Shown here: piece by piece, positions 41,590 to 63,036 of the stretch
How positions within the stretch are numbered: the first letter of the stretch is position 1
How the letters are laid out: each line of letters begins with the position of its first letter
Assembly: GCA_965204755.1 (NCBI GenBank)
Contig: OZ242011.1
Location: 2,336,001 to 2,400,000, forward strand
Reading direction: 5' to 3'
Length of the DNA stretch: 64,000 nucleotides
Source of the DNA: Candidatus Marinacidobacterium sp.
GTDB taxonomy: Bacteria > Acidobacteriota > Vicinamibacteria > Marinacidobacterales > Marinacidobacteraceae
Program-made: the position numbers and the translations under genes
The notes under the pieces: model-generated
What the model was told of the DNA's origin: nothing
What the model saw: the letters and a program-made list of their open reading frames with translations, nothing else
The model's database searches: none

Positions 41590-43143
41590 CTATCGCCGAT
41601 CCGCCACCGGGGGCCTCGCCGCGTCCCCTCGGGAAGGGGCGGGCGGGGGCTGTCGTTCCGATTCCGGGCTCGGGTAGCGGTCGAGGATCCCCTCTTCGCT
41701 CATGAGCGCTTCGATGTCGTCCGGCTCCAGAGGGACGAAGTCCGAGAGGTTCTCCGCGCCGTCCTCGGTGATCAGGATCACATCTTCCAGGCGGATGTAG
41801 ATGCGCTCCTCCGGCACCCGGAACTGCGGCTCGATGGTGAACACCATTCCGGGAGCGAGCGTTCCGTCCGCATCCCCCACATCGTGGACCGCCATACCCA
41901 CGCCGTGCCCCATCGAGTTCGGCCGGCCGGCGGCGCGCCGCGCGTAGGCGCCGACGAAGGCCTCCGCGGCGGTTCGGTAATGCGGCTTGGTGAACGGCCA
42001 CTCCGCGGCGATCCGTTCCATCCGGCGCGCCGCTTCCCCCATCACGCGGGCAGTGTCTCCGGGGCGGATCGCGTCCAGGATGGCGCGGTAGCAGGCGAGG
42101 TAGAAGCCGTAGAGGTCGCGCTGCCATTCGTTCCAGGTCCCGTTCACCGGCCACATCCGGGTGACATCGCTGGTGTAGTAGCCGAGGTCCGGCGCGTAGT
42201 CCATGAGGACCAGGTCGCCGTCCTCCAGCCGGCTGGCTCCCCGGTGGTAGTGCGGATACCAGGCGTTCGTCCCGGCGGCGACCAGCGAGTAGTAGCCGTC
42301 GGACTGCGCGCCGTCGCGGAAGAACAGGAACTTGCCCACGGCGTCGAGTTCGCGTTCGTAGAGGCCGGGCCGCGTGGACCGCATCGCTTCCATCAGCGCG
42401 AGCCCGGACAGTCCGGTGGCCCGGCGGATGAGCGCGATCTCGCGTTCGCTCTTGATCAACCGGAGGCGGTCCAGCACCGGGGAGAGATCTTCGATCGCCA
42501 GACGCGGGAATCGGTCGCGCAACCGGGCCACGAAGTTCGCTTCGCGCGAAACCCGTCCGTCCCAAGGATCGTTGGCGATGTCCGAGTTGCCGCGGGTGGC
42601 CAAGTCCCGGCTCATCGCCGCGAGTTCGGCCGGCGCGAACGGCGTATGGACGACCGGGGGCCGGTTGCTCCCGGCGAGCCGCGCCAGGTCGCCGCCCAAC
42701 GCGTCCGTTCCCCGCGCGGCGTCCACCCCGGTGAGTTCCCGGGCGAGGGCCGCGTCGTCCGCGGTGAGCAGCCGCCCTTCCGAAGCCTCGCGCCGCGGGT
42801 TCCGATGCGGCAGGTAGAGCGTGGACCGGAGAGTCGCGGCCTCCAGCAGCAGGTAGGCGTGCGGCGTCTCCACCCCGGTCAGGTAGTAGAACGAGTTCGT
42901 CTGCCGAAACCGCACATACCCGAGCGGCGACGCCGCGCCCTGCAGCACGGCGACTCCGTCCGGCCCGATCGCCTCCATCACCCGCTCTCGCCGCTCGTGG
43001 AACTCCGCCGCCGGAAAGTCTGCGGTGAAGATCGGCCCGTCCTGCCCCGCCGCCGCCCCCGGTGCGAGCGCAGCCGCCAGACAGAGGCCGAGAAGGCCCC
43101 GCGGAGCCGACGAGGCGAGAACTCGAGATCGTTCGTGGTTCAT
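41590..43143 (-). CDS. Xaa-Pro aminopeptidase (M24), probably secreted
   Basis: FRQ..FYYLTG, LRLIKS, YTSDVTR, GHGVGMAVHD, IEP and RLED. Confidence 0.93.
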   Translation of the reverse strand: MNHERSRVLASSAPRGLLGLCLAAALAPGAAAGQDGPIFTADFPAAEFHERRERVMEAIGPDGVAVLQGAASPLGYVRFRQTNSFYYLTGVETPHAYLLLEAATLRSTLYLPHRNPRREASEGRLLTADDAALARELTGVDAARGTDALGGDLARLAGSNRPPVVHTPFAPAELAAMSRDLATRGNSDIANDPWDGRVSREANFVARLRDRFPRLAIEDLSPVLDRLRLIKSEREIALIRRATGLSGLALMEAMRSTRPGLYERELDAVGKFLFFRDGAQSDGYYSLVAAGTNAWYPHYHRGASRLEDGDLVLMDYAPDLGYYTSDVTRMWPVNGTWNEWQRDLYGFYLACYRAILDAIRPGDTARVMGEAARRMERIAAEWPFTKPHYRTAAEAFVGAYARRAAGRPNSMGHGVGMAVHDVGDADGTLAPGMVFTIEPQFRVPEERIYIRLEDVILITEDGAENLSDFVPLEPDDIEALMSEEGILDRYPSPESERQPPPAPSRGDAARPPVADRR

Positions 43144-43805
43144 CCGTCGCGCTCCCCGGCGTGAACTGTTCGCCGGAACTTCTCACGGAGACCGGGAACC
43201 GAGAAACTGGCCCAGCAACTCCGGGAGAGGCCGGCGGCCTTCGGGGGAAAGGCAGCGTGCACGATCTTGCGGTTCTGTGCGTTGAGCGCCTCGGCCATCG
43301 GCACGAAGTCCCCGTCCGAGGAAACGAGCACCGCGATGTCGTACTGGCCGGACCAAGCGAGGCCGATCAGGTCGGTCGCGATGCGAACATCCACGCCCTT
43401 CTCCTTGAACCCGGCGAGTCGGTGCCCGCAGTGGGGGCACGCTTCGACCTTGCGCCGGCAACGCGAGCAGGTGACGCTGATCGGACCGGCCCTCCTGGGC
43501 AGCGTTCGCACGGAAACGCCGGGGAATCCGCTGATCGTCTCGAACCAGCGGCGGAGCGCCGCGTCGTTCTCTCCGTCTTGGTACGAACCGTAAACGGTCA
43601 TGCCCTCGTAGTCGAGACGTGCGCCGGCGTGGACGGTCGCAAGGGCGGCGCGGGCGAGAACCGCGCCGAGTTGCCGGTAGTCCGTCTCGAATCCGCGGTC
43701 CACGCCCTTCATCGAGAGCGTGAAGTTCCAGAAGTCCAGGAAGACCTTGACGCGAAGGCCCCCGCTCGGCGACGGAGATCCGTTCCCGGGAAGGAAGTTG
43801 CTCAA
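43140..43805 (-). CDS. NYN-domain (PIN-like) nuclease with an inserted Zn ribbon
   Basis: VFLDFWN, CSRC...CPHC, EKGVD and SSDGDF. CAGGAGG lies 7 nt before the TTG start. Confidence 0.9.
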   Translation of the reverse strand: MSNFLPGNGSPSPSGGLRVKVFLDFWNFTLSMKGVDRGFETDYRQLGAVLARAALATVHAGARLDYEGMTVYGSYQDGENDAALRRWFETISGFPGVSVRTLPRRAGPISVTCSRCRRKVEACPHCGHRLAGFKEKGVDVRIATDLIGLAWSGQYDIAVLVSSDGDFVPMAEALNAQNRKIVHAAFPPKAAGLSRSCWASFSVPGLREKFRRTVHAGERDG

Positions 43806-44287: not shown

Positions 44288-45178
44288 ATGGCCGACGACG
44301 CCCAGCCGCAGCCCGGGATCCTCGCCGAGATCCCGGCGCACGCCCGCTTCCTGACCTTCCGGCGGCGTCCCTCCGGGCCGATGCCGCGGGAGCCGCTCGC
44401 GCGGCTCGGCGACGCGGCCGCCGACCTCGGCGCTGTCGTGGGGATCGGCCTCTCGCTCGTTCGGGAATGCGGCGCCGAGATCCCGGGGCTCCGGACCCTG
44501 CCCGCAGTGGACGGCCCGGGGTTCTCCGTCCCCTCGACTCCGGCGGCGCTCTGGGTGTGGCTCCGGGCGGACGAGCCGGGGCCGCTCGTCCACCGGACCG
44601 GAGAAACGACCGGATTGCTGGGAGAGGCATTCCGGTTGGAGTCGGCTGTCTCCGCTTTCCGCTACGGGACAGGCCTCGACCTCACCGGCTACGAGGACGG
44701 CACGGAGAACCCGGTCGGTGACGCGGCGAAGGCGGCGGCGGTGGTGTCCGGCGCCGGGCCGGGTCTCGACGGCTCCTCCTTCGTCGCCGCGCAGCAGTGG
44801 GTCCACGACCTCGACCGGTTCTCCGCGTTCCCTCCCGAGGTGCAGGATCGGATCATCGGCCGTCGGAGGAGCGACAACGAGGAACTGCGCGACGGCCCGG
44901 ACGCGGCCCATGTGAAGCGGACGGAACAGGAGGCGCCCGACCCGCCGGCGTTCCTGCTCCGCCGCTCCATGCCGTGGGCCGACGGCGAGCGCGCCGGACT
45001 GGTCTTCGTCGCCTTCGGGAGCAGCCTCGCGCCGTTCTCCTACCATCTCGACCGCATGACCGGCGCGGAGGACGGGATCGTGGACCACCTGTTCCGCTTC
45101 ACCCGCCCGTCCACCGGCGCCTTCTTCTGGTGCCCGCCGCTCGCGGACGGACGCCTCGACTTCTCCCGCCTCCGCTGA
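44288..45178 (+). CDS. Dyp-type peroxidase
   Basis: DLTGYEDGTENP, GSSF, AHVKR, LRRSMP and DHLFRF. Confidence 0.93.
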   Translation: MADDAQPQPGILAEIPAHARFLTFRRRPSGPMPREPLARLGDAAADLGAVVGIGLSLVRECGAEIPGLRTLPAVDGPGFSVPSTPAALWVWLRADEPGPLVHRTGETTGLLGEAFRLESAVSAFRYGTGLDLTGYEDGTENPVGDAAKAAAVVSGAGPGLDGSSFVAAQQWVHDLDRFSAFPPEVQDRIIGRRRSDNEELRDGPDAAHVKRTEQEAPDPPAFLLRRSMPWADGERAGLVFVAFGSSLAPFSYHLDRMTGAEDGIVDHLFRFTRPSTGAFFWCPPLADGRLDFSRLR

Positions 45179-45197
45179 ACGAGCGCCCCCTCGCAGA

Positions 45198-45689
45198 GTG
45201 CCCGCAGCCAGGAGGCTGACCGCCGCCGCCGTCTTCGCCGGCGCCCTCTTCGCGCTCCCCGAACCGGCTGCCGCCCAGACCGGCTGCGAACTGCTCTACC
45301 TGCAGTGGGAGGGCTGCGCGACCGAGTGCGAGTCCTACTACGAAAACCGCGTGGCGCGGGCGGTCTGCCGCGCCTGGTGCCTGGTCGAGTATGTCCGCGA
45401 CTATTGGACCTGCGAGTCCAATGTGGAGGCTTCCGAGGAGTCGGAAGCAGCGCCCGCGGAGGAGGGCGCCCGGGAGCCGGACGAGGAGCGCGGCGCGTCC
45501 CGGATCGGCCGGCCGGGTGACCGGGGCGGCGGCCCATCGTCCGGGGCGGCCCCCGGCGTGGTCAGCCGCCGGCCGGTCGGCGCCGGCCGCGCCGCCTTCC
45601 GTCGAGCGCCGGGGAAGGCCCCGCGCTGCGGAAGGTTGACCAGGTCCCTCATCTCGAGCGCCACATCCCGGTCCGCCGGCGGCGCCTGA
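45198..45689 (+). CDS. Hypothetical secreted cysteine-rich protein
   Basis: Signal peptide ending PAAA|Q, six Cys within ~45 aa and a low-complexity tail. Confidence 0.65.
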   Translation: MPAARRLTAAAVFAGALFALPEPAAAQTGCELLYLQWEGCATECESYYENRVARAVCRAWCLVEYVRDYWTCESNVEASEESEAAPAEEGAREPDEERGASRIGRPGDRGGGPSSGAAPGVVSRRPVGAGRAAFRRAPGKAPRCGRLTRSLISSATSRSAGGA

Positions 45690-45754
45690 GCGGCGTCCCG
45701 GCCGTCTCCCGACCCTCTCGACACACCCGGGCGAACGCCTCGGCCGCGCGCCTC

Positions 45755-46453
45755 GTGAGCGAATCCCGCGCCCGCCGGCTGGCGGCGGAGTTCCTCGGAA
45801 CCGCCGGCCTCCTCGCCGCGATCATCGGCTCCGGCATCATGGCCGAGACGCTCTCCGGCGGCAACGACGGCGTGGCGCTCATCGGCTGCACCGCCGCCAT
45901 CGGCGCCGCCTTGGTCGTCCTGATCTGGCTGTTCCTCCCGGTATCCGGCTGCCACATCAACCCGGCGGTCACGCTGGCCCTGCTGCTCCGCCGCCGCATC
46001 GCCCCGGCGGACGCCGCCGCCTATGTGGCGGTCCAAGCCGCCGGCGCCGTCGCCGGGATGCTGGCCACCCACGCCATGTTCGACCTGCCGCTGCTGCAGG
46101 CAGCCACCACCGTCCGCACCGGCCCGGGCCAGTGGTTTTCCGAGTTCGTTGCCACCGTCGGCCTCCTCGCCACCATCTTCGGCGCCGCCCGCTTCCGTCC
46201 CCAAGCCCTCGCCCCGGCGGTCGGCCTCTACATCTTCGCCGCCTGCTGGTTCACCGCTTCCACTTCCTTCGCCAACCCGGCGGTCACCCTCGCCCGCAGT
46301 TTCACGGACACTTTCTGCGGCATCCGCCCCGCCGACGCCCCGCCGTTCGTCCTGATGCAGATCTTCGGCGCGACCGCCGCCGCCCCCCTCTCCGCCTGGT
46401 TGTGGCCGGACGCAGCGGCTACTCTCCGTTCTTCCCCGGCCCGCGCCGACTGA
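45755..46453 (+). CDS. MIP/aquaporin family channel (AqpS-like)
   Basis: AEFLGT, HINPAVT and WFTASTSFANPAVT. Confidence 0.92.
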   Translation: MSESRARRLAAEFLGTAGLLAAIIGSGIMAETLSGGNDGVALIGCTAAIGAALVVLIWLFLPVSGCHINPAVTLALLLRRRIAPADAAAYVAVQAAGAVAGMLATHAMFDLPLLQAATTVRTGPGQWFSEFVATVGLLATIFGAARFRPQALAPAVGLYIFAACWFTASTSFANPAVTLARSFTDTFCGIRPADAPPFVLMQIFGATAAAPLSAWLWPDAAATLRSSPARAD

Positions 46454-46467
46454 CCCGCGACACCAGC

Positions 46468-49400
46468 ATGGCATCCCCTTCGGCCTCGACACTCGCTGCC
46501 GTCGCTCTTTCTCATCCTCTCGTCCTTCGAGCCGCCTGGATGAGAATCGACAGGTGGTACCGCGCCGGCAACATCGCACCGGAGCCGGAACTTTCCCGCT
46601 GGCGGCTCCATCCGGAGGCGGAACTTCGGTCACTTGGCGAGGCCCTGCGCAACGGAATTTGGGCGCCATCCGCATGGCAGCAACTGCCGTACCCGAAGAA
46701 GGGCAAGCGTCTCCGCCATTTCGTCTGGCCAACGGTGAGAGATCAAGTCGCGTTCATGGCGCATATGGTGTTGCTCGGCCCACTGATCGATAGCCGGCTC
46801 AATCCGTTCGTCTTCGGAAATCGGTGGTATCGGTCGATCATTTGGGACCGGTCCCAATCGTCTCGCTCCAGATGGACACCCCTCGGGTACCCGCTGCTTA
46901 CCTCTCGTAGTTACTTGCCGTACGCCCGTGATCACGGCTTGTACCGACGAGTCGCGCACTGGACGGTTTCTCGCATGACTGGCGCACCGGTCGAAGAGAA
47001 CGACTACGGCGGACGCGTTCACCATCCGGATGACTACAATGAGGACTTCCTTCCCGAATGGACCCGCCGAGAGTGGTGGGCGGGGGGGTTGGAGGGCAAA
47101 CACCGTGCGTACTGGGCGGCCCTCGATATCGAGATGGCGTACCCGTCCGTCAATCTAGATTACCTCCGCAACTGTCTTCTTCAGGCGCTGGCCGCGGATC
47201 CTCTCGACGAAAACATCTTCAGGGGATATCCGGATGTCACACTTGCCGCTCTTCGGGATGAAGAGTCTCCTCGATCGATCGCCCGGCGACTCATCGTCGC
47301 ACTTCAGAAAGTGCGCGTGCGGCACGGGGACATCCTCAACGCTTCGTGGAAACCCTCCCACATCCGAGCAAGGCTGCCGTCGCTTGATGAGGATATAGGT
47401 ATTCCTACGGGTCTGGCGATTTCTGGTGTTCTTCTGAATGTGGCACTTGCCCCTACGGACAAGAGCATCTACCGCTATTTGAAGACGACGACGGGTGCCT
47501 ACCGTGGTGCGGTTCTGCGATTCGCCGACGACACGTACGTCTTCTCACGATCGCTTGACGGTCTCTTGACATTGATGGAGGTTGTAGCACGGGACACGGC
47601 TCATCCCAAAGAAGCGTCGTGGCTTCCTGATCGGCCGGACGGGCGTGGCGATTCCGAAAGCGCACTCTTGCGTTCGCGGTCAACATTGGGGACGAATCTC
47701 TATCTCAACTTGGAGAAGATCCGGCCCGATGCCGTGAAGCGCCTCGTCGAAAGAGTGTGTCGGAGCGAAGGTTGGTCCAAGTGCGACGACTGTGAGGCGT
47801 TGAAACCTGATGATTCAATGACGAAGACGACTCCAGTGGATCGGTGGTGGCGCACAAACGAGGACAGCGTCGACCGTCAACTGCGGAATGCGCTTTTCCG
47901 CGCGAGTGTCGGACCGGAATCCGCAGGGCCATTCGTCACGGCGCTCGTTGAGAGAATGAGCGAGATCGGATGGGGAGGCCTTCGTGAGCGCTTCGGGGAG
48001 GGGGCGCGGGAGCGGCTTGGTCGGCTCCACGAGTTGGCGCGCTTCGACATCGCGGACGAGCAGGTGCGTGCCGATACTCGAAGAGTGTTCGCAGCAAATC
48101 GGTTGGTGGCGGCATGGCTGTCGGACGAAGGCGGCACCGCCGTCGCAGAGATCCGCCACATTCGAGACTCGCTGGCGCACGTGCTGGATCGCACGCCGTG
48201 GAAGTTCGCGCTCTGGACAGCCGTAGTTCGAGCCGCCGCGCGACTGTCCTATGTCGGCGCTGAACGAACGGAAAATGCCAAGGAAGATGACCGCAACGGG
48301 GGCGTTTGGCTCGAATCTCAGCTGCGGCGCATTGCGCGACCGCCCTCTGCAGACGACCATCTGTCGTGGGCCAAGCGGTGGCCTGAGGATCTCCATGACT
48401 CCCACGATCGAGGTGAGGGTTGGGCGGATCTCTATCTCTCATTCCATCGCGCAGCCTTCTGGCAAGGATTGCGGACCGTTCTCATCGAACTCTGGGAGCA
48501 TTTGCGACGGACCGGCGGCGGAGAGGCTGAGGCGGCCCACGAGTCGGGGCCATCGCCGGATTCGTGGTGTTTCAGGGCCATCCCGGAGGGTCGCCATCGG
48601 GAAACACTTGACCTTCTGGGTACGACAGACAGATGGGCCCGCGTGCTGTACGGAGCGGACGCAGAGGCGAGTGATCGATTGGCGCACCGATGGGAGATGG
48701 ATCAGTTCGTGGCGGCTGTTCTATCGACGGTGCCTCGATCCCGAGCGGCGGTGGCATGGCTCAGGTGCCAGCCGCCGGGAGAGATCTTGCGCGTTCCGTC
48801 AGCCCATCCAGGACTCGGGACTCTAACGGAGAGAATCCTCCGGCGTGCGAATCGATTGAGCGTCCGAGGTGGTCAGGTCGCGGGCCTCTCTGCTGGCGCT
48901 CTCGCTCATCTTGGTCTTGCGGGCACGGATCGCAAGACGGGGAGAGTTCTCTATCGGAAGGGTGTGCCACGAATCCACGACTGGAGTCGTGATCGAGACA
49001 GGATTGTCCGGATGAGCCAAGTACTGGGCTGCTCCGATGCCATCAGTGCTGCGCAGATGGAATTGGAGGTTGACACTCCGTCGGAGTTGATCCAGAAGAT
49101 CGGCGACGCGCCGTTTCGACTTGATGCCTATGGTGCGGTGCGTCGGACCCTACTTGGAGGTGAGAGCAAGTCGACTCAGGCTGTCGAGTCGCTACATCGG
49201 CTCTTGTGGGGCAGGCCAGGAGATTCGAGGGACTTGTCGTCTTGGCCGCTCTGTCCGTGGGACATGCCCGCTGTCGGTCTTCCCTATCAGATCGCCGTTG
49301 GTCTTTTCCTCAATGCGCCGAATCCGACTCCAGAATGGCGACCGGTCCACGGGCCGCTATCGTGGTTCTTCCACAAGGGCAGTGCGATCCTCGCGGCTGG

Positions 49401-50979
49401 ACGACAACTGCAGTTTCGTTCAGTGTCGGAGGCACCGCCATCAGTCGCTTCCCCCTCAACGAATCGCGACAGCAGAGTCGGTGTGGGCAAGACTCGTACA
49501 TGGGACGTGCCCCCGCACGCCGCCTTTTTTCGCCCCTTCCTTCATGACGCTCCGACCGAAATTGACTCGATTGGGTACGACACGTACTGTGACGTTCTCC
49601 TTCTTCTGACGGCCCTGGATGGTAGCGAAGGAATTCTGGACGTGATCCAAGAGAGTGGCACCGGAAGTCTTCCTTTCAGGGAACGCTGGGCATGGCGGTC
49701 GCGCATTCATCTGAGTAACTGCGCATGGAACGCGATAGAGAGTGCGATTCGGTGGTCAGAGAAACCGGCAGCGGAACCGGTGGACAAGGAAGGAGGATCA
49801 CTCGATGTCAAGGGCGCCCTGCGGAACTCGATACCCGATGGCGTTGCTACTCTGTCGTCGGATGCCTTCGCCGTGGAACGCGTAGACCTGCATGTTGATT
49901 CGGGCGCGGGAGTTGAGATCTCAAGGGCGATACGGACGGGGTCGTGGCCGGACCAGACGCTACCAGACGAGTTGAGAATCGCCACATCGCCCGACTCTGA
50001 CAAGGTGCGAGTGAGACTCGGGCAAGTCATCGCTAAGGTTGAGAAGCAGGCACGCAACTCGCTTAGCGTAACGACGGCGACCCGGAACGCGACCATGGAG
50101 CAAGTCTTTAGGGCCTTCTTGGCGCCAAGTTACGGAGGAGCATCTTCATCGCCGGACTTGGTTGTATTGCCGGAACTCACGGTACCGAACGAGGAAGTTC
50201 GGTCTCTGCGCAGCTGTGTCATGGAGACCGGGATGGCCGCATTGACCGGGCTCTACTGGCGTACCTTGGCACCGGTGTATCCGGCGAGTGGAAGCGTACG
50301 GAGTCAGAGACACTGGATCGTGAATGAGGCGGAACTTGCCGTGCCGGTCGGCTACCACGATCGCGGGCCGACGAGTATCCGTTGGTACCGCGTACGAAAA
50401 CCCCTCCCCTCACACATGGAAGACGGTCGGGCTCAGGCGTTGCAGGCGGAGTACGGAGGCGCTTGGAAGATGTTGCCCGGTCGACGTTGGTATCGTTTCG
50501 TGCATTCTCAGTGGGGCGATTTCGCCGTCGCCATCTGTTCCGACCTCATCGACGCGTCGCCATGGCGGACGTTGCGAGGTGAGATCCTCCATCTGTTCGT
50601 CGTTGCGTACAATCGGGATGTGAACCTCTACGAAGTACTGACTTGGGCTCGCGCGTACGAGAATTACGCCAATCTGGTGGCTGTCAACAGCGGGGACTAC
50701 GGTGGCTCAGTGGCGTGGACTCCACGGCGTCGGCTCGGTCGCGAGTTGGCGCAACTAAGGGGTCGAAAGATGAGTGTGCTGGCCGATGTGTCGCTTCCGG
50801 TGACGGAGCTCCTGATGGAACAGTTGCGCGGTGTCAGGAAGGCAGTTTGTCGGACCGCAGCGGAGTGGGAGACGGGAGAGACGACCGAGGCGGGAGGATA
50901 CAAATCGCCGCCGCCCGGTTTCAAGCGCCGCGCCGTTCAAACGAGCGACAGTCTGAAAGACGAGTCCCCAGACGAGTGA
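46468..50979 (+). CDS. Reverse transcriptase fused to a C-terminal nitrilase (C-N hydrolase) domain; UG/DRT-like, 1,503 aa
   Basis: RT motifs PYPKK, VRDQ, FGNR, LDIEMAYPSV, GIPTGLAISGVLLN, RFADD and NLEK. Nitrilase triad LVVLPE / RVRK / AICSD. Confidence 0.9.
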   Translation: MASPSASTLAAVALSHPLVLRAAWMRIDRWYRAGNIAPEPELSRWRLHPEAELRSLGEALRNGIWAPSAWQQLPYPKKGKRLRHFVWPTVRDQVAFMAHMVLLGPLIDSRLNPFVFGNRWYRSIIWDRSQSSRSRWTPLGYPLLTSRSYLPYARDHGLYRRVAHWTVSRMTGAPVEENDYGGRVHHPDDYNEDFLPEWTRREWWAGGLEGKHRAYWAALDIEMAYPSVNLDYLRNCLLQALAADPLDENIFRGYPDVTLAALRDEESPRSIARRLIVALQKVRVRHGDILNASWKPSHIRARLPSLDEDIGIPTGLAISGVLLNVALAPTDKSIYRYLKTTTGAYRGAVLRFADDTYVFSRSLDGLLTLMEVVARDTAHPKEASWLPDRPDGRGDSESALLRSRSTLGTNLYLNLEKIRPDAVKRLVERVCRSEGWSKCDDCEALKPDDSMTKTTPVDRWWRTNEDSVDRQLRNALFRASVGPESAGPFVTALVERMSEIGWGGLRERFGEGARERLGRLHELARFDIADEQVRADTRRVFAANRLVAAWLSDEGGTAVAEIRHIRDSLAHVLDRTPWKFALWTAVVRAAARLSYVGAERTENAKEDDRNGGVWLESQLRRIARPPSADDHLSWAKRWPEDLHDSHDRGEGWADLYLSFHRAAFWQGLRTVLIELWEHLRRTGGGEAEAAHESGPSPDSWCFRAIPEGRHRETLDLLGTTDRWARVLYGADAEASDRLAHRWEMDQFVAAVLSTVPRSRAAVAWLRCQPPGEILRVPSAHPGLGTLTERILRRANRLSVRGGQVAGLSAGALAHLGLAGTDRKTGRVLYRKGVPRIHDWSRDRDRIVRMSQVLGCSDAISAAQMELEVDTPSELIQKIGDAPFRLDAYGAVRRTLLGGESKSTQAVESLHRLLWGRPGDSRDLSSWPLCPWDMPAVGLPYQIAVGLFLNAPNPTPEWRPVHGPLSWFFHKGSAILAAGRQLQFRSVSEAPPSVASPSTNRDSRVGVGKTRTWDVPPHAAFFRPFLHDAPTEIDSIGYDTYCDVLLLLTALDGSEGILDVIQESGTGSLPFRERWAWRSRIHLSNCAWNAIESAIRWSEKPAAEPVDKEGGSLDVKGALRNSIPDGVATLSSDAFAVERVDLHVDSGAGVEISRAIRTGSWPDQTLPDELRIATSPDSDKVRVRLGQVIAKVEKQARNSLSVTTATRNATMEQVFRAFLAPSYGGASSSPDLVVLPELTVPNEEVRSLRSCVMETGMAALTGLYWRTLAPVYPASGSVRSQRHWIVNEAELAVPVGYHDRGPTSIRWYRVRKPLPSHMEDGRAQALQAEYGGAWKMLPGRRWYRFVHSQWGDFAVAICSDLIDASPWRTLRGEILHLFVVAYNRDVNLYEVLTWARAYENYANLVAVNSGDYGGSVAWTPRRRLGRELAQLRGRKMSVLADVSLPVTELLMEQLRGVRKAVCRTAAEWETGETTEAGGYKSPPPGFKRRAVQTSDSLKDESPDE

Positions 50980-51036
50980 GGAGAGGTGCCTTCTCGGCCC
51001 AGACTCTGCCGCTGGTGCTTCGCTTTGGCCCGTGGC

Positions 51037-52464
51037 TCAGCCGGCCGAGGCGGCGGGAACGCGCTGAGCCCGGTCCTCCACCAAGTGGCGGATGGTGTTG
51101 GCGTAGTAGTCCACGAAGTCGCGGCGGGGGGCGAGGACGCGGAGGCGGCCGTCTTCGCTGGCGACCATCTTCCGTTGGACGAGTAACGCCAGGCCCTGCT
51201 CCACGGCGGTCTTCCAGTCCGGGCGGGCGATGTCCGGTTCGCCGGGGCGCCGCGCCACGGACTCCAGGATCCGGAAGGCGCGGGCTTCGGCTTCGGGGGG
51301 CGTGATCCCGTCGGGATCGTGTTCGCGGATGACCGCGGCCATGAGCGGCACCGGGAGGATCGGCATGATCGCGGCGATTCGTTCCATGAGCGCGCCCGCC
51401 AACTCTTCGACCGCGGTGAAACGCGCCTCGCGACTCGCCGTCCGCGGATCGAGGGCGGCGGCGGCGAGCCAATCGCGCAGCGAAACCGGGGCGCCCACGC
51501 TGATCGTCGCCCGCCCGAACGGGCGCCAGCGGCGGCGCAGGTAGAGCCACGACTGCTGGAGGAAGAAGCCGAGGCTCGCCCGCCAGGTGCGGATGCGGGT
51601 GGGAGACCGCCCTTTCACTTTCAGCAGGTGGAGGTTCTTGTCCTCCATGACGCGGTCGTAGTTGACGGCCACCGGGACGAGCGCCACATCGCGTTCGGCG
51701 TCGGGATCGAAGGCGCGCACCGTGTAGTCGAGCAAGCCGAGGCGCGGCCGGCGCAGCGCGCCGTCTTCGCTGAACCGGCCTTCGATGAAGAACGCCTGCG
51801 GGACGCCGCCGCGGGCGGCGTGTTTGACATGGGCGGCCAGCACCGCGCGGTAGAGCGGGTTTCCCGAGCCGCGCCGCACGAAGAACCCGCCGAGGCCGCG
51901 CAGCATCGGCTCGAGCGGCCAGTAGCGCGCCCATTCCCCGACCGCGAACGAGAGGACCGCGCGGTCGGCGAGCGAAGTGGCGGCGATCAGGTAATCCAAG
52001 TTGCTCCGGTGGTTGAGCACGAACACCGGGGTCGAGTCCTTCGCCGCCCGGGAGAGCGCCGCTTCGTCGGCGTAACGGACCCGCACCGAGAACACGCGGC
52101 TCAGCGCGCGCCGCACCGGGCCGTGGAGGAAACGGAAGACGAAACCGGAACTCAGCGAGGGGACGATTTCGCGGGCGTAACCGCGGGCTTCGTGGAGCAC
52201 CTCGCACTGCTCGATGCCGGTCTCCTTCGCCCTTCGGACGACCGCCGCCTGCACTTCGGGCTCCACCATGAGCAGGTCCGCCGCGGCGACCGGCGAGATC
52301 AACTGGAACGCCGAGGGTTGGATCGCCGACCGCGCCCGGTGGAACCCGTGGGGGTTCTGCCGTTCCAGCCTCCGCCTCAGCAGCGGCCGGAGGACCAGTC
52401 CGTAGGCGCAGCCCAAGACGAGCAGCGCCAGCACGAAGGCCGGAACCGGAACGGTCTGGAACAT
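51037..52464 (-). CDS. Glycerol-3-phosphate acyltransferase (PlsB/PlsC family)
   Basis: H-X4-D motif NHRSNLDY, FFVRR, FIEG and VPVAVNYD. Confidence 0.9.
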   Translation of the reverse strand: MFQTVPVPAFVLALLVLGCAYGLVLRPLLRRRLERQNPHGFHRARSAIQPSAFQLISPVAAADLLMVEPEVQAAVVRRAKETGIEQCEVLHEARGYAREIVPSLSSGFVFRFLHGPVRRALSRVFSVRVRYADEAALSRAAKDSTPVFVLNHRSNLDYLIAATSLADRAVLSFAVGEWARYWPLEPMLRGLGGFFVRRGSGNPLYRAVLAAHVKHAARGGVPQAFFIEGRFSEDGALRRPRLGLLDYTVRAFDPDAERDVALVPVAVNYDRVMEDKNLHLLKVKGRSPTRIRTWRASLGFFLQQSWLYLRRRWRPFGRATISVGAPVSLRDWLAAAALDPRTASREARFTAVEELAGALMERIAAIMPILPVPLMAAVIREHDPDGITPPEAEARAFRILESVARRPGEPDIARPDWKTAVEQGLALLVQRKMVASEDGRLRVLAPRRDFVDYYANTIRHLVEDRAQRVPAASAG

Positions 52465-56841: not shown

Positions 56842-57064
56842 GAAGCGCGGGATCGTAACAGAGCCCCGCCGAGGCTCCGGCTCGAATTCGGTAGCGGCGC
56901 CCGCCTTGGTTGGTTAGAATCAGACCCTAGATGTGGGTGTCTGGTGTGCGTCCCGTGGGTGCTTGGTGGTCGTGTTCCGAGCCGGGTTCGCCCCGCTCCG
57001 CGCCGCACCCCTCGGGCACTGCGCACGAGGCCAGCCACGCGCCGATTCAGGTGAGGAAGCCGCG

Positions 57065-58102
57065 ATGATCAAGGCCATCGATTTCTTCTGCGGAGCGGGA
57101 GGCCTGACGCGGGGGCTTCTCGACGCGAAAGTCTCCGTGGTGGCGGGAGTCGACAACGACCCACGCCTCCGCTTGACCTATGAGCGCAATAACCGACCGA
57201 GCCGTTTCGTCTGTGAGGACATCGCAGAGGTCGACATCGCCGCCCTCCGAGCGGACTTGGCCATCGAGCGTGGTGACGCGACACTCTACGCCGCCTGCAC
57301 GCCGTGCCAGCCGTTCTCATCCCTGAACATATCCAAACGCCCCGATGGCAGGAAATCACTCTTGCTGGAGTTCGCCCGGGTCGTAGCGAACAGCCCTCCC
57401 GACTTCGTCATCGTGGAGAATGTCCCGGGGCTTCACAGCGCTGTCGGGCGCGAAATCTACGCTCAATTCATGAGTGTCCTGTCGAAATACGGCTTCCGGG
57501 AGTCCTCCGATCTGCTGGATGCGAAGGACTACCGCGTACCGCAGACCCGCAAGCGTTTCATCTTGGTGGCATCGCGACACGGTCGCCCGGATTTGCCCGC
57601 GCCGACGACAAGAACCTGTCCGGAGACCGTCGCCCGCCATATCGGGCGTTACCCGCGGATCGCTGACGGCGAACGATCTACGGTGGTCCCCAACCACCAC
57701 GCGAGACGATTGCCTCCGCACCACAAGCGGATCGTGGAGGCCGTTCCACTCGATGGGGGAAGCCGTCGCGATGTGACAGACACCTCGATTCTGCTCAAAT
57801 GCCACCGGCGTCGACCAGCCGCCCACAAGGATGTTTTCGGCCGGATGGCGTGGCAGGCGCCGGCCCCGACATTGACCTGTCGATGCACCGATGTCTATTG
57901 TGGCCGCTTCATCCACCCGGAGCAGCACCGGGGAATCTCTCATCGCGAAGCGGCCGCGCTTCAGACTTTCCGTGACGACTACGAGTTCTACGGCGAGTCG
58001 TTTCACGAGAGGTCGCGACAGATCGGAAACGCTGTGCCGGTCAGACTCGCCGCAGCCTTGGGTGCGGTATCTCTACAGTTCTTGGACGGATGTCGCCACT
58101 GA
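57065..58102 (+). CDS. C5-cytosine DNA methyltransferase
   Basis: FFCGAGG (I), PCQPFS (IV), ENV (VI), QTRKR (VIII) and QIGNAVP (X). Confidence 0.95.
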   Translation: MIKAIDFFCGAGGLTRGLLDAKVSVVAGVDNDPRLRLTYERNNRPSRFVCEDIAEVDIAALRADLAIERGDATLYAACTPCQPFSSLNISKRPDGRKSLLLEFARVVANSPPDFVIVENVPGLHSAVGREIYAQFMSVLSKYGFRESSDLLDAKDYRVPQTRKRFILVASRHGRPDLPAPTTRTCPETVARHIGRYPRIADGERSTVVPNHHARRLPPHHKRIVEAVPLDGGSRRDVTDTSILLKCHRRRPAAHKDVFGRMAWQAPAPTLTCRCTDVYCGRFIHPEQHRGISHREAAALQTFRDDYEFYGESFHERSRQIGNAVPVRLAAALGAVSLQFLDGCRH

Positions 58103-60051
58103 CCCGTGACCCGAGCGCCATGAGCAGCAGGAAGCCCTTCGAGATGGAATTCGACATCTCGACGATCAAGCATCTGGGTCTCCAGATGTATTCCACGCTC
58201 CCACCCGTTATCGGCGAACTGATCGCCAACGCTTGGGACGCGAACGCCAAGAGGGTCGAGATCACGATTCCGGAGACCGCCATCGGCGACGACGACACGG
58301 AGATCGTCCTCTCGGACGACGGTTTGGGGATGTCGGACAGTGACATACGCGACAAATACCTCATCGTCGGACGAGATCGACGTGAGGCCGAGAGTTGCGA
58401 AGCATCGCCATCTCCGTTCTGCCGGAAAATCATGGGCAGAAAGGGCATCGGCAAGTTCTCTGCGTTCGGAATAGCGCGCGAAATCGAGATCGAGAGCATC
58501 CGAGACGGCGATCACAGCCGGTTCGTAATGGACTACGACAAGATGCTTGAAGCCGTCAACGACCGGCGGGCCAGTTTCGAGCCTTTGCCCCCGACTGACC
58601 AGGTACGGACCGGCACCCGGATCGCACTCCGGAAACTGACGAAGTTCCGAAAGCGCGGCATCGCAGTGGATGCGTTGCGTCGCGGCATCGCCAGGCGCTT
58701 TTCGGTCGTCGCGGCCAAGAACGACTTCGAAGTCGTAGTAAATGAGCAAGCGATCACTGTGGAGGAACGTGACCTGAAGCGACTCCTGGATGTCGACATG
58801 GCGGGAAAGCAGTTCCTGTGGTCGTATGACAACGAGGAGATCGAACCAGAGACAGGGTGGACGGTATCGGGGTGGATTGGCGCCTTGAAGGGTACGACTC
58901 GTTCTGGCGACAGTGTTGACCGTGGAGTCTCCGTCATGGCGAGGGGTAAACTCGTTCAAGAGCCGTTCTGGTTCAAGGCGGAAGTAGGCCAACAGTTCGC
59001 ACTGTCCTATCTCGTCGGCGAACTTCACGCGGAGTTCGTCGACGGCGACGATGACACGATTGGCACGAGCAGGAACACGCTGGTGTGGGACGCCGAGCCC
59101 AACCAGAGACTGATGGAGTGGGGTCAGAAGGAAATGAAGAAGATCGCCCGCGAGTGGTCCGATCGGCGCAGCCGAGACCAAGAGCAACGGCTTGAAGACA
59201 ACGAGCACTACCGGCAGTTCAAGAATCGCGCCACCGACATGACCAACCGGAGGGGTTTCAAGTTGGCGGATAAACTCGTACGCGAAGCGATCCGAAGGAA
59301 TCCGACAGCGGAAGTCAAGGAGGTGGAACCCGTCATCAAGATGGCGGTGGACTTCGTGGAGTTCGACTCATTCTTGGCGATCGCCCATGACTTGGTTGAT
59401 TCCGACTTGTCGGACATCGGGAGGTTGGTCGAACTGTTTCGGGAGTGGGAAGTTGTGGAGGCACTGGAAATGGCGCGCGTGACGGAAGGTCGAATCAGCA
59501 CGATCGGCCTTCTGGATCGTATGATCGAGGAGAACGCCCTTGAAACGCCGAGACTACACAAGTTCCTGAAGAGGTTCCCTTGGGTCATCGATCCCAAATG
59601 GACCTTGGTGGCCGACGAAGTGTCGTACACGAAACTTCTTCGTGACAAGTTTCCTGACAATGCCGAAATTGACAGGAATAGACGGATTGACTTCCTCTGT
59701 GTTCATGAGGGTACGAACTTGGTCGTCGTTGAAATCAAGCGTCCCGCCTCCAAGGTGTCGAACAAGGAGTTGGAACAGATTGAGGAGTACGTGAACTTCG
59801 CGCGTAGCCGAACGGAAGAGACGACCGACCCGGACAGTCGCTACGAAGATGTCGTTGGCTATCTCCTCTGTGGAGGTGTAGCGGACACGTGGAATGCGCG
59901 GCAGAAGGTGAAGAATCTTCGATCAGCGCGTATCTATGTGCGGAAGTACGGGGAACTTCTGGACATGGTGAAGGAATTGCATTCCGATTTCCTCAAGAAA
60001 TATAAGGACCTGAGGGGCGAACGCGGAGGGGAGCAGAGTGCGAGGAGTTGA
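58090..60051 (+). CDS. GHKL (MORC-like) ATPase with a C-terminal PD-(D/E)XK nuclease (alternative start 58120)
   Basis: ELIANAWDANA, DDGLGM, GRKGIGK, GTRI and C-terminal RIDFL...VEIKRP. Confidence 0.9.
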   Translation: MSPLTRDPSAMSSRKPFEMEFDISTIKHLGLQMYSTLPPVIGELIANAWDANAKRVEITIPETAIGDDDTEIVLSDDGLGMSDSDIRDKYLIVGRDRREAESCEASPSPFCRKIMGRKGIGKFSAFGIAREIEIESIRDGDHSRFVMDYDKMLEAVNDRRASFEPLPPTDQVRTGTRIALRKLTKFRKRGIAVDALRRGIARRFSVVAAKNDFEVVVNEQAITVEERDLKRLLDVDMAGKQFLWSYDNEEIEPETGWTVSGWIGALKGTTRSGDSVDRGVSVMARGKLVQEPFWFKAEVGQQFALSYLVGELHAEFVDGDDDTIGTSRNTLVWDAEPNQRLMEWGQKEMKKIAREWSDRRSRDQEQRLEDNEHYRQFKNRATDMTNRRGFKLADKLVREAIRRNPTAEVKEVEPVIKMAVDFVEFDSFLAIAHDLVDSDLSDIGRLVELFREWEVVEALEMARVTEGRISTIGLLDRMIEENALETPRLHKFLKRFPWVIDPKWTLVADEVSYTKLLRDKFPDNAEIDRNRRIDFLCVHEGTNLVVVEIKRPASKVSNKELEQIEEYVNFARSRTEETTDPDSRYEDVVGYLLCGGVADTWNARQKVKNLRSARIYVRKYGELLDMVKELHSDFLKKYKDLRGERGGEQSARS

Positions 60052-60102
60052 GAGACCGGCGCGCGGCTCAGTCTTCTGGGCGGAGTTGCATCTAGGAGAG
60101 CC

Positions 60103-61809
60103 TCAGCGCCAGTCGGCGTGGTCCGGGCCCTTCCAGATTCCGAGGGCCTCGTCCGCGAGTCTTGTTCCGCGATCCGCGATCTCCTTCGGGCCCCAGGTGG
60201 CGTAGCGGTTGAAGTCCTCGTTGAGGCAGATCTTTGCCTTCGTGAGGAGTTTCTTCTTTTCCTCGTACGGGGCGTTGCCGAGGGCAGCGTTCACTTTGCC
60301 GGCGAGGAGCGCGAGGTTGCCGGGAGTGTTCACCCACTGACGGTGGAGAGCCTCCCAGTTGTCTCCGAGCACCTTCTGCCAAGCGAAGCACCTGGGGTTC
60401 TTCGCATCGGAGATGGACTTTGGCATCACATGCTCGACATGGATTCCCGGGGGTCCGTCTTGGACGGTGTAGCCGGCGGCTGTTTGGCGTGCACGCTCCA
60501 AGCCGCGCACAACGGCGTCCATGAAACTCGCCTTGGCGAACGAGTGCTCGACGAAGCGGTCACGAAACTCGTCATCCTCGGGCCAGTCTTCGGTGGCCAA
60601 ACGGCCTCGCAGCCAGCCGACGACCTGCGCATCTACCTTGAAGCCGAGATCGCAGAGTCCCGGGAGAGTGCGCCATTGGCGCCTGGAGTCGTGGTTACAG
60701 AGGTGCCCTCGAACCAAGTAACTGGCCAGCATGTCCAGGGCTCGGTCACGGTCGCTCTCAGAGATGAGGCCGGTTCCCTCCGCGTAGGCGTCCAAGACCG
60801 CCAGGGCGACGGGGAAGACGGCAGAAACGCCCGGTCGCCGGACGCGATCCAGCACATCGCGAAGCGATGGGTCCGCGGTCGTTCGACGCCCGCGGACCAA
60901 GAGATACCGCTCCTTGCGGGGTCGGAGGAGATCGGTAACTTCGGTGCCGGAGCGCTCGTCCATGGCCTTCTTGAATCGGCGATAGACCTTGGTCTTCGGG
61001 ATGTTTTTCTGTTCGTCGCAGGTCAGAAGATGCTGGAAGAAGGAATCGAACAGTGGCATGTCGAGAGTATTCGATCCCTTCTTCTCGAAGCCGCTCTCGA
61101 TGATCTGCCAATGGTCTTGATGGAACTGGTCTTGCGATTCCGGGCGCTCCTTCGCAAAGACATGGCTTCGGATCAGATCGGACTGACTCAACTGGACGCG
61201 CTTGGCGTTCAGATCTTCGAAGGCCTGAGTGATGGCGTCCGGAGTGTCGAGGACGACCCAGACGACCTGCAGCCTACGGAGAACCGCGCGGCCGATTTCG
61301 GTCGGCGAGAGAGTGTCGAGTCCCTTCAACTGTCGCAAGAAGTAGCGGTAGGCGCGGAGCATGTTGCTCGTGGTTCCGCGCACGCGCTCTCTGCGGGCGA
61401 TGTCCCGGTAGATGTGCGCATCGGTGTACCGCGGCACAAGTCGAGGCACATTGAACTCGGTGTTCCACACATTGGGGTGGAACTCTCGGCAGGCCTCCTC
61501 GTCCTCCTTGGCGATCGTGTCCCGTACGGCGCAGAGCAGGAGCGACAGGGTTGTCAAGCGCTGCTGGCCGTCCACGATCAGATAGGTGGGCAGTCCGGGG
61601 CGCAGGCTCTTGATCAGCGTGATGACGCCGATGAAGTGGAGGTCCCGATGATCGCGCTCGCAGGCTTTGACGACATCCTCCCAGATGCCTTCCCAATGCC
61701 CAGGCGTCCAGACGTACTCCCGCTGGTGCGGCGGAGTCTCGAAGTGCGCGTTCGTGGTCAACAAGCCGTCCACGGGCGTCGTGTGGGCATAGGTACCGAA
61801 GCCAGTCAT
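60103..61809 (-). CDS. GmrSD-family (DUF262 + DUF1524/HNH) nuclease
   Basis: HQREYVW, DGQQRLTT, FEDLN and EHVMP...GNLALL...N. Confidence 0.92.
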   Translation of the reverse strand: MTGFGTYAHTTPVDGLLTTNAHFETPPHQREYVWTPGHWEGIWEDVVKACERDHRDLHFIGVITLIKSLRPGLPTYLIVDGQQRLTTLSLLLCAVRDTIAKEDEEACREFHPNVWNTEFNVPRLVPRYTDAHIYRDIARRERVRGTTSNMLRAYRYFLRQLKGLDTLSPTEIGRAVLRRLQVVWVVLDTPDAITQAFEDLNAKRVQLSQSDLIRSHVFAKERPESQDQFHQDHWQIIESGFEKKGSNTLDMPLFDSFFQHLLTCDEQKNIPKTKVYRRFKKAMDERSGTEVTDLLRPRKERYLLVRGRRTTADPSLRDVLDRVRRPGVSAVFPVALAVLDAYAEGTGLISESDRDRALDMLASYLVRGHLCNHDSRRQWRTLPGLCDLGFKVDAQVVGWLRGRLATEDWPEDDEFRDRFVEHSFAKASFMDAVVRGLERARQTAAGYTVQDGPPGIHVEHVMPKSISDAKNPRCFAWQKVLGDNWEALHRQWVNTPGNLALLAGKVNAALGNAPYEEKKKLLTKAKICLNEDFNRYATWGPKEIADRGTRLADEALGIWKGPDHADWR

Positions 61810-61818
61810 GTGTGTTCC

Positions 61819-62853: not shown

Positions 62854-63036
62854 GCGGAGGAGCGGGTGCTGCCGCGCTGTCCGCCGAAGCCGTCGGGCGC
62901 GCCCGCAATATGGGTCAGAGCGAGCCCCTGGCTACACCCCTGGAGGGCGGCGTCGCATTGGGGAGCCGGCGAAAGGCTGGCTAGCGTTTTTCGGCGGGTC
63001 CTGTGAGAATGGACCGCATCGCGAGGAGGCCCGCCA

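Follow-up and report, generated by a model that had tools for sequence, protein, structure and literature searches.

A 64,000-nucleotide stretch of the genome of Candidatus Marinacidobacterium sp. (contig OZ242011.1, positions 2,336,001 to 2,400,000 of the forward strand), here termed the window, contains a gene in which a reverse transcriptase (RT) is joined to a C-terminal C-N hydrolase of the nitrilase type. This gene raises the question of whether it belongs to one of the named groups of UG/Abi RTs or to a distinct branch of them, and of whether it could confer defense against phages on its own. An initial annotation, made from the sequence alone, had interpreted it as a single-gene defense RT of a possibly undescribed clade. 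Our analysis places it in an unnamed family of class 3 UG/Abi RT-nitrilases that stands beside the UG6 group, and suggests that it is probably a self-contained abortive-infection module operating in the manner of the DRT1 system.

Reading frame and catalytic motifs

The open reading frame (ORF; 46468..50979, forward strand, stop codon included) is one uninterrupted frame of 1,503 aa, present only once in a genome of 3.98 Mb, and its description as a stand-alone RT-nitrilase fusion stands, with all the motifs quoted for it recovered. Since residues 14-24 (LSHPLVLRAAW) are kept in homologues, the ATG at 46468 is a better start than M25, from which the public gene call (P0002, 1,479 aa) begins. 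The RT motifs were located as VRDQ (residues 90-93), FGNR (116-119), LDIEMAYPSV (219-228), GIPTG (311-315) and RFADD (351-355). F352, D354 and D355 of the catalytic motif are invariant in all 31 aligned full-length homologues, and F352 and D354 likewise in all 48 N-terminal modules compared.

The FADD sequence had been noted as a departure from the usual YxDD. It is not exceptional, as FxDD is the rule in the family: among 264 family proteins and fragments, FADD was found in 155 and FVDD in 22, with no match to the search pattern in 76 (mostly fragments) and other or chance matches in the remaining 11. UG6 proteins show FVDD in 110 of 120 cases, and the UG1 and UG5-large references show YVDD in 8 of 8. 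The phenylalanine in the Y-x-DD box is thus a trait of the lineage common to the family and UG6 rather than an oddity of a single gene.

The nitrilase triad, previously described as apparently intact, is indeed so, with E1236, K1311 and C1357 invariant in 31/31 homologues. Close to the C-terminus lies a further conserved motif of the general form (F/Y)K(A/S)PPPG(F/Y), in which K1479 and P1481-1483 are nearly invariant among the aligned homologues; of 242 family C-termini, 204 contain the pattern [FYW]KxPPxx[FYL], and the UG6-linked nitrilase and the UG1 and UG5-large references have tails related to it. The version in the window, YKSPPPGF, aligns to WKSPPAGL of a Drt1a homologue (L043). Two hydroxyl residues immediately past the RT core, T491 and S498, are invariant in the same 31 full-length and 48 N-module sequences, and align to T418 and S425, which are in turn invariant in 27 UG6 sequences; the helix that bears them is modelled with lower confidence. 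A C-x-x-C pair (C439 and C442), together with W436 and W460, is also nearly invariant in the family; in the model it lies on a small hairpin that follows RT motif 6, and it might constitute a disulfide or half of a metal site. No cysteines of UG6 proteins align to this pair.

Domain architecture and predicted structure

The protein was modelled with AlphaFold2 (AF2) in two parts cut at natural module boundaries, namely residues 1-905 (the N-module; predicted local distance difference test score, pLDDT, 88.5; predicted template modelling score, pTM, 0.93) and residues 900-1503 (the C-module; pLDDT 81.3, pTM 0.88). The Pfam RVT_1 model reaches 21.9 bits on this protein, under its gathering cut-off of 29.6; the RT fold is nonetheless clear in the predicted structure, which matches the RT of a diversity-generating retroelement (DGR) in VIA (Z 13.5, root-mean-square deviation (rmsd) 2.8, 257 residues aligned). 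Further matches of the RT core are to group II intron RTs, recovered by both Foldseek with the N-module (E 1.4e-6) and VIA (Z 11.9), and to DRT2 (VIA Z 11.8), and the top NCBIfam match is a group II intron RT/maturase model (E 5.8e-10).

The RT is separated from the nitrilase by about 690 aa, which had been described as an unassigned middle region of special richness in Trp and Arg. This compositional claim fails, with Trp at 3.3-3.8% and Arg at 9.9-11.0% in each third of the protein. Structure prediction suggests instead that the interval comprises two domains. The first is predicted to be entirely helical: residues 17-820 align in VIA to AbiK, Abi-P2, DRT4, DRT6 and AbiA (Z 9.3-10.1, 379-436 aligned), and residues 490-800 to HEAT and designed helical repeat proteins (Z 7.3-9.6). 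As Z scores in this range are common among helical repeats generally, the post-RT domain is assigned as an alpha-helical repeat by its architecture. The second, at the start of the C-module, is tentatively predicted to be kinase-like: the 26 rows at ranks 25-50 of the VIA-wide comparison are all protein kinases, matched through their C-lobe (Z 7.7-8.8, rmsd 3.2-4.7, 143-166 aligned) over model range 1-253, values that are borderline by the guidance of the tool, and no catalytic motifs were identified in this domain. An ESM Atlas search with residues 900-1200 was uninformative, its top score of 0.80 being to an unnamed cluster.

The nitrilase domain has a clear CN-hydrolase fold. Pfam CN_hydrolase gives no match at E<=1 on this protein, and the AF2 model aligns to 22 CN-hydrolase entries in VIA with Z 14.7-16.8, the top one at rmsd 3.0 Å over 225 residues. 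The closest solved chain by sequence is that of DRT1 (9yfd, E 1.4e-18), for which the hmmsearch alignment ends at residue 1206, short of the C-terminal tail.

Flanks of the gene and the question of an RNA template

The coordinates put 14 bp before the gene and 57 bp after it, and confirm that the flanks leave no room for an adjacent non-coding RNA (ncRNA) or membrane partner. A scan of positions 45000-52000 against Rfam returned two chance-level matches alone (E 0.31 and 0.48, both sub-gathering), and a promoter and terminator scan found nothing above chance, including in the 14-bp upstream spacer. Comparison of the flanking non-coding sequence of 30 family loci by blastn, which an RNA conserved in structure only would escape, recovered only pairs that have common neighbor genes.

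These observations bear on an alternative account of the polymerase, in which it copies an RNA template (its own mRNA, or host or phage RNA) as do DRT2, DRT9 and DRT10, and the cDNA is the signal that controls the nitrilase. Such an account would fit the RT core being best aligned to template-using RTs (those of the DGR, the group II intron and DRT2) and the group II intron RT/maturase model being the top NCBIfam match, and the DnaG-like primase of UG6 hints at a former nucleic-acid primer in the lineage; it is countered by the lack of an ncRNA candidate, of any Rfam match and of a conserved flank in the above searches, by the template-free, protein-primed synthesis reported for three published class 3 enzymes (PMC13275509), and by the succession of an RT and an alpha-repeat domain, which is the arrangement of AbiK, Abi-P2 and DRT4. 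We therefore regard template copying as unlikely, and favor an RT of the template-free kind.

Placement among the UG/Abi groups

The protein was compared with the RT models of PADLOC v2.0.0, the scores being calibrated on true UG6, Drt1a and UG5-large members from other genomes. The top match is to RTasNitrilase (E 1.3e-38) in the nitrilase part. Two further models match this part only, namely RT_UG5-nitrilase (E 3.3e-28, 96.6 bits, against 1,034 bits over positions 9-901 for a true member) and Drt1a (E 4.1e-15, 52.7 bits, against 1,289 bits over positions 2-1176 for a true Drt1a). Of the 925 positions in the RT_UG6 profile, 2-225 match the RT part (E 6.8e-16, 55.9 bits), and nine other family members score 42-87 bits on this model; a true UG6 RT attains 1,141 bits over positions 2-921, and the nitrilase of the same system 386 bits. 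Because these scores are far below those of true members, the window protein lies outside UG6, Drt1a and UG5-large as PADLOC v2.0.0 models them, and none of the RT models scores it as a member.

Profile-profile comparison with hhalign nevertheless points to UG6 as the closest group: columns 9-534 of the family profile align to columns 8-469 of 27 UG6 proteins (E 1.1e-31, 23% identity, about 450 columns). Past residue 547 no similarity to UG6 was found, either for family residues 548-1210 or for the C-module against the UG6 C-terminal region (E 0.29 and 0.55). The nitrilase is likewise closer to the UG6-linked nitrilase (30% identity, E 3.2e-19) than to that of Drt1a (23%, E 2e-9).

The RT domains were also placed in a quick maximum-likelihood tree, which held 51 sequences (32 of the family, 11 of UG6, 5 of UG1 and 3 of UG5-large) and was built without UG5-small, UG24, UG29 and class 1 or 2 references or an outgroup. 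UG5-small references were sought in 301 genomes, none of which matched, and the control genomes gave no match either. Support was assessed by the Shimodaira-Hasegawa-like approximate likelihood ratio test (SH-aLRT). The family, UG6, UG1 and UG5-large each form one side of a branch, with SH-aLRT values of 100, 99, 98 and 100, respectively, and the grouping of the family with UG6 against UG1 with UG5-large receives 92, below the star threshold of the tool. The stems of the family and UG6 are long, at 2.4 and 2.7 substitutions per site, and that of UG5-large reaches 4.8. The family thus stands beside UG6 and not inside it, with UG6 being its nearest group within this sampling.

The features observed, namely an RT closest to UG6, a length of 1,503 aa and a nitrilase fold with an invariant triad, are those of class 3, and by its sequence the gene is a class 3 UG/Abi RT-nitrilase, UG6, UG1 and UG5-large being the groups that the tree held for comparison. 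The suggestion of an undescribed clade accordingly has to be divided. The kind of system is already known; the branch itself is unnamed and has no member-level model in PADLOC v2.0.0, and a literature search, which did not extend to the supplementary tables of the Mestre et al. and DRT11 papers, found no name for the family.

Comparison with UG6 and other named systems

UG6 is described by Mestre et al. (2022) as a class 3 UG/Abi RT accompanied by separate genes for a DnaG-like primase (cluster 192) and a CL285 nitrilase, and the UG6 locus found in our survey (L042) agrees with this, having the DnaG-like primase, the RT and the nitrilase as three separate genes. The earlier assignment of the window gene to RT-nitrilase fusions in a UG/Abi setting therefore holds for the gene class, and does not hold for UG6, which had been listed there as a fusion. 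The family resembles UG6 in having its nearest RT and nearest nitrilase there, in the phenylalanine of the Y-x-DD position, and in the counterparts T418 and S425 of T491 and S498. It differs in four respects: it has no primase; its nitrilase is fused to the RT or, in split forms, separated by a break before the kinase-like domain, whereas the break in UG6 comes after it; about 650 aa are without detectable similarity; and it recurs in BREX operons. The three UG6 genes encode about 1,080, 307 and 348 aa, as against a total of about 1,470-1,500 aa in the family.

Mestre et al. (2022) mention a remote kinase-like domain with missing catalytic residues at the C-terminus of the UG6 RT. If this domain is the same as that predicted here, then the order of RT, helical, kinase-like and nitrilase domains would be common to both groups, with the gene boundaries alone differing. 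A 1,423-aa relative of UG6 (P0489) combines Pfam domains of a DnaG primase (Zn ribbon, DNAG_N and Toprim_2) with RVT_1 in a primase-RT fusion, which recalls the UG29 architecture described in the same work.

DRT1 (UG1) shares with the family the intact catalytic residues and, judged by the homologue L043, the K-x-P-P tail; it provides the closest solved structure by sequence (9YFD) and is the best available mechanistic model. It differs in having YVDD in place of FADD, in belonging to a separate RT clade, in being about 270 aa shorter and in lacking the additional kinase-like domain of about 240 aa; moreover, the DRT1 priming serine is not mappable onto the family. UG5-large (DRT11; our reference, L044, is from an E. 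coli plasmid) likewise combines an RT with a nitrilase and has no ncRNA, and UG5 is known in both fused and split versions (Mestre et al. 2022; PMC13436386). It has about 1,000 aa, YVDD and a small DUF4136 linker where the family has about 700 aa of extra domains, and of the three groups it lies furthest from the family in the RT tree. AbiK, Abi-P2 and DRT4 share the succession of an RT and an alpha-helical repeat domain, and the N-module can be aligned to them along some 800 residues (Z 9.3-10.1, 412-436 aligned). These proteins are members of other UG/Abi classes, lack both the nitrilase and the kinase-like domain, and show weak or no sequence similarity.

Phyletic spread and fused and split forms

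An exhaustive HMMER search with residues 1-1190 recovered 413 clusters (at 50% identity) at E<=1e-3, of which 133 were at E<=1e-30, many being fragments. Homologues of near full length number 171 at E<=1e-3, most of them 1,456-1,497 aa long, alongside a second population, at about 850-910 aa, in which the match is confined to the first 59-60% of the query. When residues 900-1503 were used to look for shorter proteins, 147 were retrieved at E<=1e-10, most of 560-600 aa and covering about 97% of that part. The two length populations therefore indicate that the family occurs as either one gene or two. This was seen directly in 38 genomic loci taken from one-genome-per-species contigs, some from related genomes: 15 have a fused gene, 15 an abutting or overlapping pair, and 8 are partial, broken or divergent. 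In the split pairs the RT part is an ORF of 770-933 aa and the C-terminal part one of 563-680 aa; the split point precedes the kinase-like domain, such that the second gene carries this domain and the nitrilase. Fused and split forms are intermixed in the RT tree, with 4-5 changes each, and the fusion state has therefore changed several times. Accordingly, the characterization as a single-gene system is apt for the copy in the window and does not extend to the family, half of whose intact loci are split in two genes.

The loci derive from metagenome-assembled genomes (MAGs) titled Acidobacteriota, Gammaproteobacteria, Longimicrobiales, Spirochaetia, Myxococcota, Planctomycetota and Opitutales, a patchy distribution over at least six phyla. 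Among mobile elements, 2 of 72,556 plasmid records matched, through the nitrilase part only, no match was found in 50,697 phage records, and none of 12 IMG/VR candidates was confirmed. Two family copies (L029:10033-11073 and L018:10203-11318) are broken near residue 620-650, each by about 1.2-1.4 kb of inserted DNA, which in L029 encodes a DDE_3 (IS630-type) transposase and in L018 contains a 371-aa ORF without a Pfam match.

Genomic context

BREX operons enclose nine of the 38 loci. These operons are of two kinds, and in both the family gene is on the operon strand. In the first kind, an RT pair lies between BrxC (1,240-1,243 bits) and PglX (1,458-1,490 bits), as seen in L001 and L021, with L026 and L028 added by clustering. 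In the second, the RT pair has PglXI (1,294-1,333 bits) on one side and a BrxH-type helicase (1,430) with PglZ (822-899) on the other, as in L012 and L024, with L013, L022 and L025 added by clustering. The MAGs concerned are titled Thermoanaerobaculia, Acidobacteria, Spirochaetia, Longimicrobiales and two Candidatus genera. Elsewhere the neighbors include HEC-01A/AAA_21 ATPases, RmrA-like helix-turn-helix (HTH)-peptidase proteins, AAA-ATPases with PD-(D/E)XK proteins, Fic and RhuM. Taken together, this genomic context supports a defense role of the family, as had been proposed, with nine loci inside BREX operons and others beside defense-type ATPases. In L001 (with L028 and L026 by clustering), an RmrA-like regulator with HTH and M78-peptidase domains and an HEC-01A/AAA_21 ATPase (L001:6454-7962 and L001:12405-13586) flank the RT pair, and hence several accessory genes are stacked between brxC and pglX.

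The same loci bear on whether the gene is autonomous. A copy of this kind might need a partner in trans, such as a primase or other protein as in UG6, or be accessory to a BREX-like system absent from this stretch, and the three-gene constitution of its nearest relatives, the BREX-embedded loci and the requirement of some UG5-large and UG1 systems for a transmembrane (TM) partner noted by Mestre et al. (2022) would all be in keeping with this. A search for the UG6-linked DnaG-like primase by tblastn, however, found nothing below E 3 in the 38 loci and the window, with the control locus matching at E 0. Three host genomes do have DnaG-model matches, but these are distant from the RT locus, and as the same model also matches 10 of 14 control genomes, they are taken to be the housekeeping primase. 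Likewise, with shadow ORFs within the RT gene disregarded, any one neighbor is common to at most 6 of the 38 loci, and 21 intact loci lie outside BREX. Dependence on such a partner is accordingly improbable, and we prefer to regard the gene as self-contained.

Origin of the copy in the window

The site was compared among 30 relatives. A genome of the same genus (G704) retains the order of the MIP gene, an RT ORF of 887 aa, a C-module ORF of 663 aa and the acyltransferase gene (L067, G704:C1:110500-119800, corresponding to 45755-52464 of the window). In this genome the family is represented by a split form, in which the N-module ends in TAG and the ATG of the C-module follows two bases on. The flanking proteins are 86-88% identical between the two genomes and the RT-family parts 46-48%, with both alleles having a GC of about 0.6. 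A further locus with the same ORF lengths and flanks (L010) is probably from the same genome and was counted once. Genomes of three further genera of the same taxonomic family (L068, L069 and L070, from G708, G714 and G721) have a DUF418 membrane-protein gene in the slot that separates the MIP gene from the acyltransferase gene. The possibility that this slot is a general defense hotspot was considered and rejected, given the ordinary DUF418 gene there in the three other genera.

The lower GC claimed for the gene relative to its neighbors is confirmed, at 0.607 as against 0.727 for the upstream MIP gene and 0.707 for the downstream acyltransferase gene. The low GC (0.61 versus 0.71-0.73), the divergent allele in the congener and the DUF418 gene in other genera indicate that the gene was acquired horizontally. 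The presence of very different alleles at one site in two congeners is as expected for accessory immune genes.

It could be supposed that the gene is instead a domesticated RT-nitrilase of a non-immune kind, acting for instance in stress-linked nucleotide or small-molecule metabolism, and that the restriction-type islands are near it by chance. The housekeeping genes that surround it here (MIP channel, acyltransferase and prolyl-tRNA synthetase, ProRS), the failure to find the family in the plasmid, phage and IMG/VR collections and the lack of clear defense enrichment of UG6 in the analysis of Mestre et al. (2022) could be read in this way, but this is hard to reconcile with the operon-strand position inside two types of BREX locus in several phyla, with the foreign GC, the 46-48% identical allele in the congener and the absence from the site in other genera, or with the disruption of the L029 copy by an insertion sequence and the patchy spread over at least six phyla, which are dynamics of accessory defense rather than of core metabolism. 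A non-immune role thus has little to commend it, and a defense role is preferred.

Proposed mechanism

Taken together, the above observations suggest that the gene is probably a self-contained abortive-infection module working in the DRT1 manner, and a class 3 RT-nitrilase of an unnamed group nearest to UG6. In this scheme the RT would make short template-free DNA, with a hydroxyl residue of its own as the primer. Driven by the covalent DNA adduct, subunits would assemble via their nitrilase domains and form a dormant oligomer, where the nitrilase site of each would be closed by the conserved C-terminal tail of another. Release of the nitrilase by a phage factor would follow, and the freed enzyme would damage an essential small molecule and thereby stop the infection. 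The template-free protein priming, the oligomer gating, the toxicity and the triggering by phage are all carried over by analogy with DRT1; the scheme is made plausible by the predicted alpha-repeat domain after the RT, the intact nitrilase triad and the conserved tail motif. Purely as a hypothesis, T491 or S498 might serve as the priming residue.

The analogy draws on recent accounts of class 3 systems. DRT1, DRT5S and DRT5L are reported to synthesize DNA in a template-free, protein-primed manner, and their RT and nitrilase mutants lose defense (Neville et al. 2026, PMC13275509). In the same account, adducts on Ser402 of DRT1 drive the formation of dormant filaments with a nitrilase tetramer core, the neighboring nitrilase site is closed by a C-terminal loop that is conserved, K1219A or A1223F abolishes defense, and activation requires the T4 Dda helicase. 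For DRT11 (UG5-large), the RT and nitrilase are described as sufficient, with no TM partner needed and no ncRNA found in the work reported (Sanchez-Nieto et al. 2026, PMC13436386). On these two accounts the lack of an ncRNA or TM partner is normal for class 3 (PMC13275509, PMC13436386).

Several points weigh against this interpretation. The mechanism is known for DRT1, and its extension to the present family is an analogy. Other class 3 groups are described as not conserving the DRT1 priming serine (PMC13275509), and the family RT lies far from that of DRT1, with stem branches of 2.4 and 2.0 substitutions per site and FADD as opposed to YVDD. The probable equivalence of K1479 to DRT1 K1219 runs through the DRT1 homologue L043 and not through the solved protein. 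The kinase-like domain has no DRT1 counterpart and could impose a different control logic. With regard to the defense role, the association of UG6 is rated "inconclusive" by Mestre et al. (2022); 9 of 38 overstates the number of independent BREX associations, since the loci include related genomes; the immediate neighbors in the window are the housekeeping genes noted above; and the family, not found in the plasmid, phage or IMG/VR collections, lacks the mobile-element signal of many defense genes.

A more specific proposal, which we regard as possible yet doubtful, is that the family is a new DRT type of four domains, in which a pseudokinase-like sensor would lie between a protein-priming RT and the nitrilase and self-priming on T491 or S498 would replace the UG6 primase. 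Such a type would have been recruited repeatedly as a second layer in two BREX types, and would flip easily between the one-gene and two-gene states.

Other features of the window

The coordinates of the above domains and motifs are collected in Table 1 along with those of the neighboring genes. A low-GC island (56918-62931, GC 0.55-0.66) lies 6 kb from the RT gene and has the appearance of a restriction-modification island.

Table 1. Positions in the window of the RT-nitrilase gene, its parts and other genes discussed in the text
Feature	Position	Strand	Remarks
NYN-domain protein (predicted RNase)	43140-43805	minus	between aminopeptidase P and Dyp-peroxidase genes
MIP-family channel gene	45755-46453		upstream neighbor, stop at 46453
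Spacer, 14 bp	46454..46467		between MIP gene end and RT-nitrilase ATG
RT domain, aa 1 to ~490 (fingers, palm, post-palm segment)	46468..47937	+	UG6 profile match and fold
Catalytic FADD, F352-A353-D354-D355	47521..47532	+
C-x-x-C pair, aa 439-442	47782-47793
Predicted alpha-helical repeat (HEAT/alpha-solenoid-like) domain, aa ~490-880	47935..49107	+	all-helical in model
Tentative protein-kinase C-lobe-like domain, aa ~900-1136	49165..49875	+	first domain of C-module; on second gene in split forms
C-N hydrolase (nitrilase) domain, aa ~1176-1490	49993..50937	+	PADLOC profile and fold
Nitrilase triad, E1236	50173-50175	+
Nitrilase triad, K1311	50398-50400	+
Nitrilase triad, C1357	50536-50538	+
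C-terminal tail motif, Y1478-K-S-P-P-P-G-F1485	50899..50922	+
Spacer, 57 bp	50980..51036		between RT-nitrilase stop and acyltransferase gene
Acyltransferase gene	51037-52464	minus	convergent with RT-nitrilase gene
Dcm-type C5 methylase	56918-58102		low-GC island
GHKL-ATPase protein	57976-60051		low-GC island; PADLOC REase_II match
GmrSD-type type IV restriction enzyme	60103-61818	minus	low-GC island
N6/N4 methylase	61819-62931	minus	low-GC island

Implications

PADLOC-based surveys miss this family in Acidobacteriota, Gemmatimonadota, marine Gammaproteobacteria and other lineages. Among the class 3 RT-nitrilase systems, the mechanism has been explained for one member only, DRT1 (2026). The family shares the RT and nitrilase lineages of UG6 while having no primase and a different fusion or split point, and could thereby reveal how priming is achieved, as well as what the kinase-like domain contributes. 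Its BREX-embedded copies, found in several phyla, make it a candidate accessory module for that defense system.

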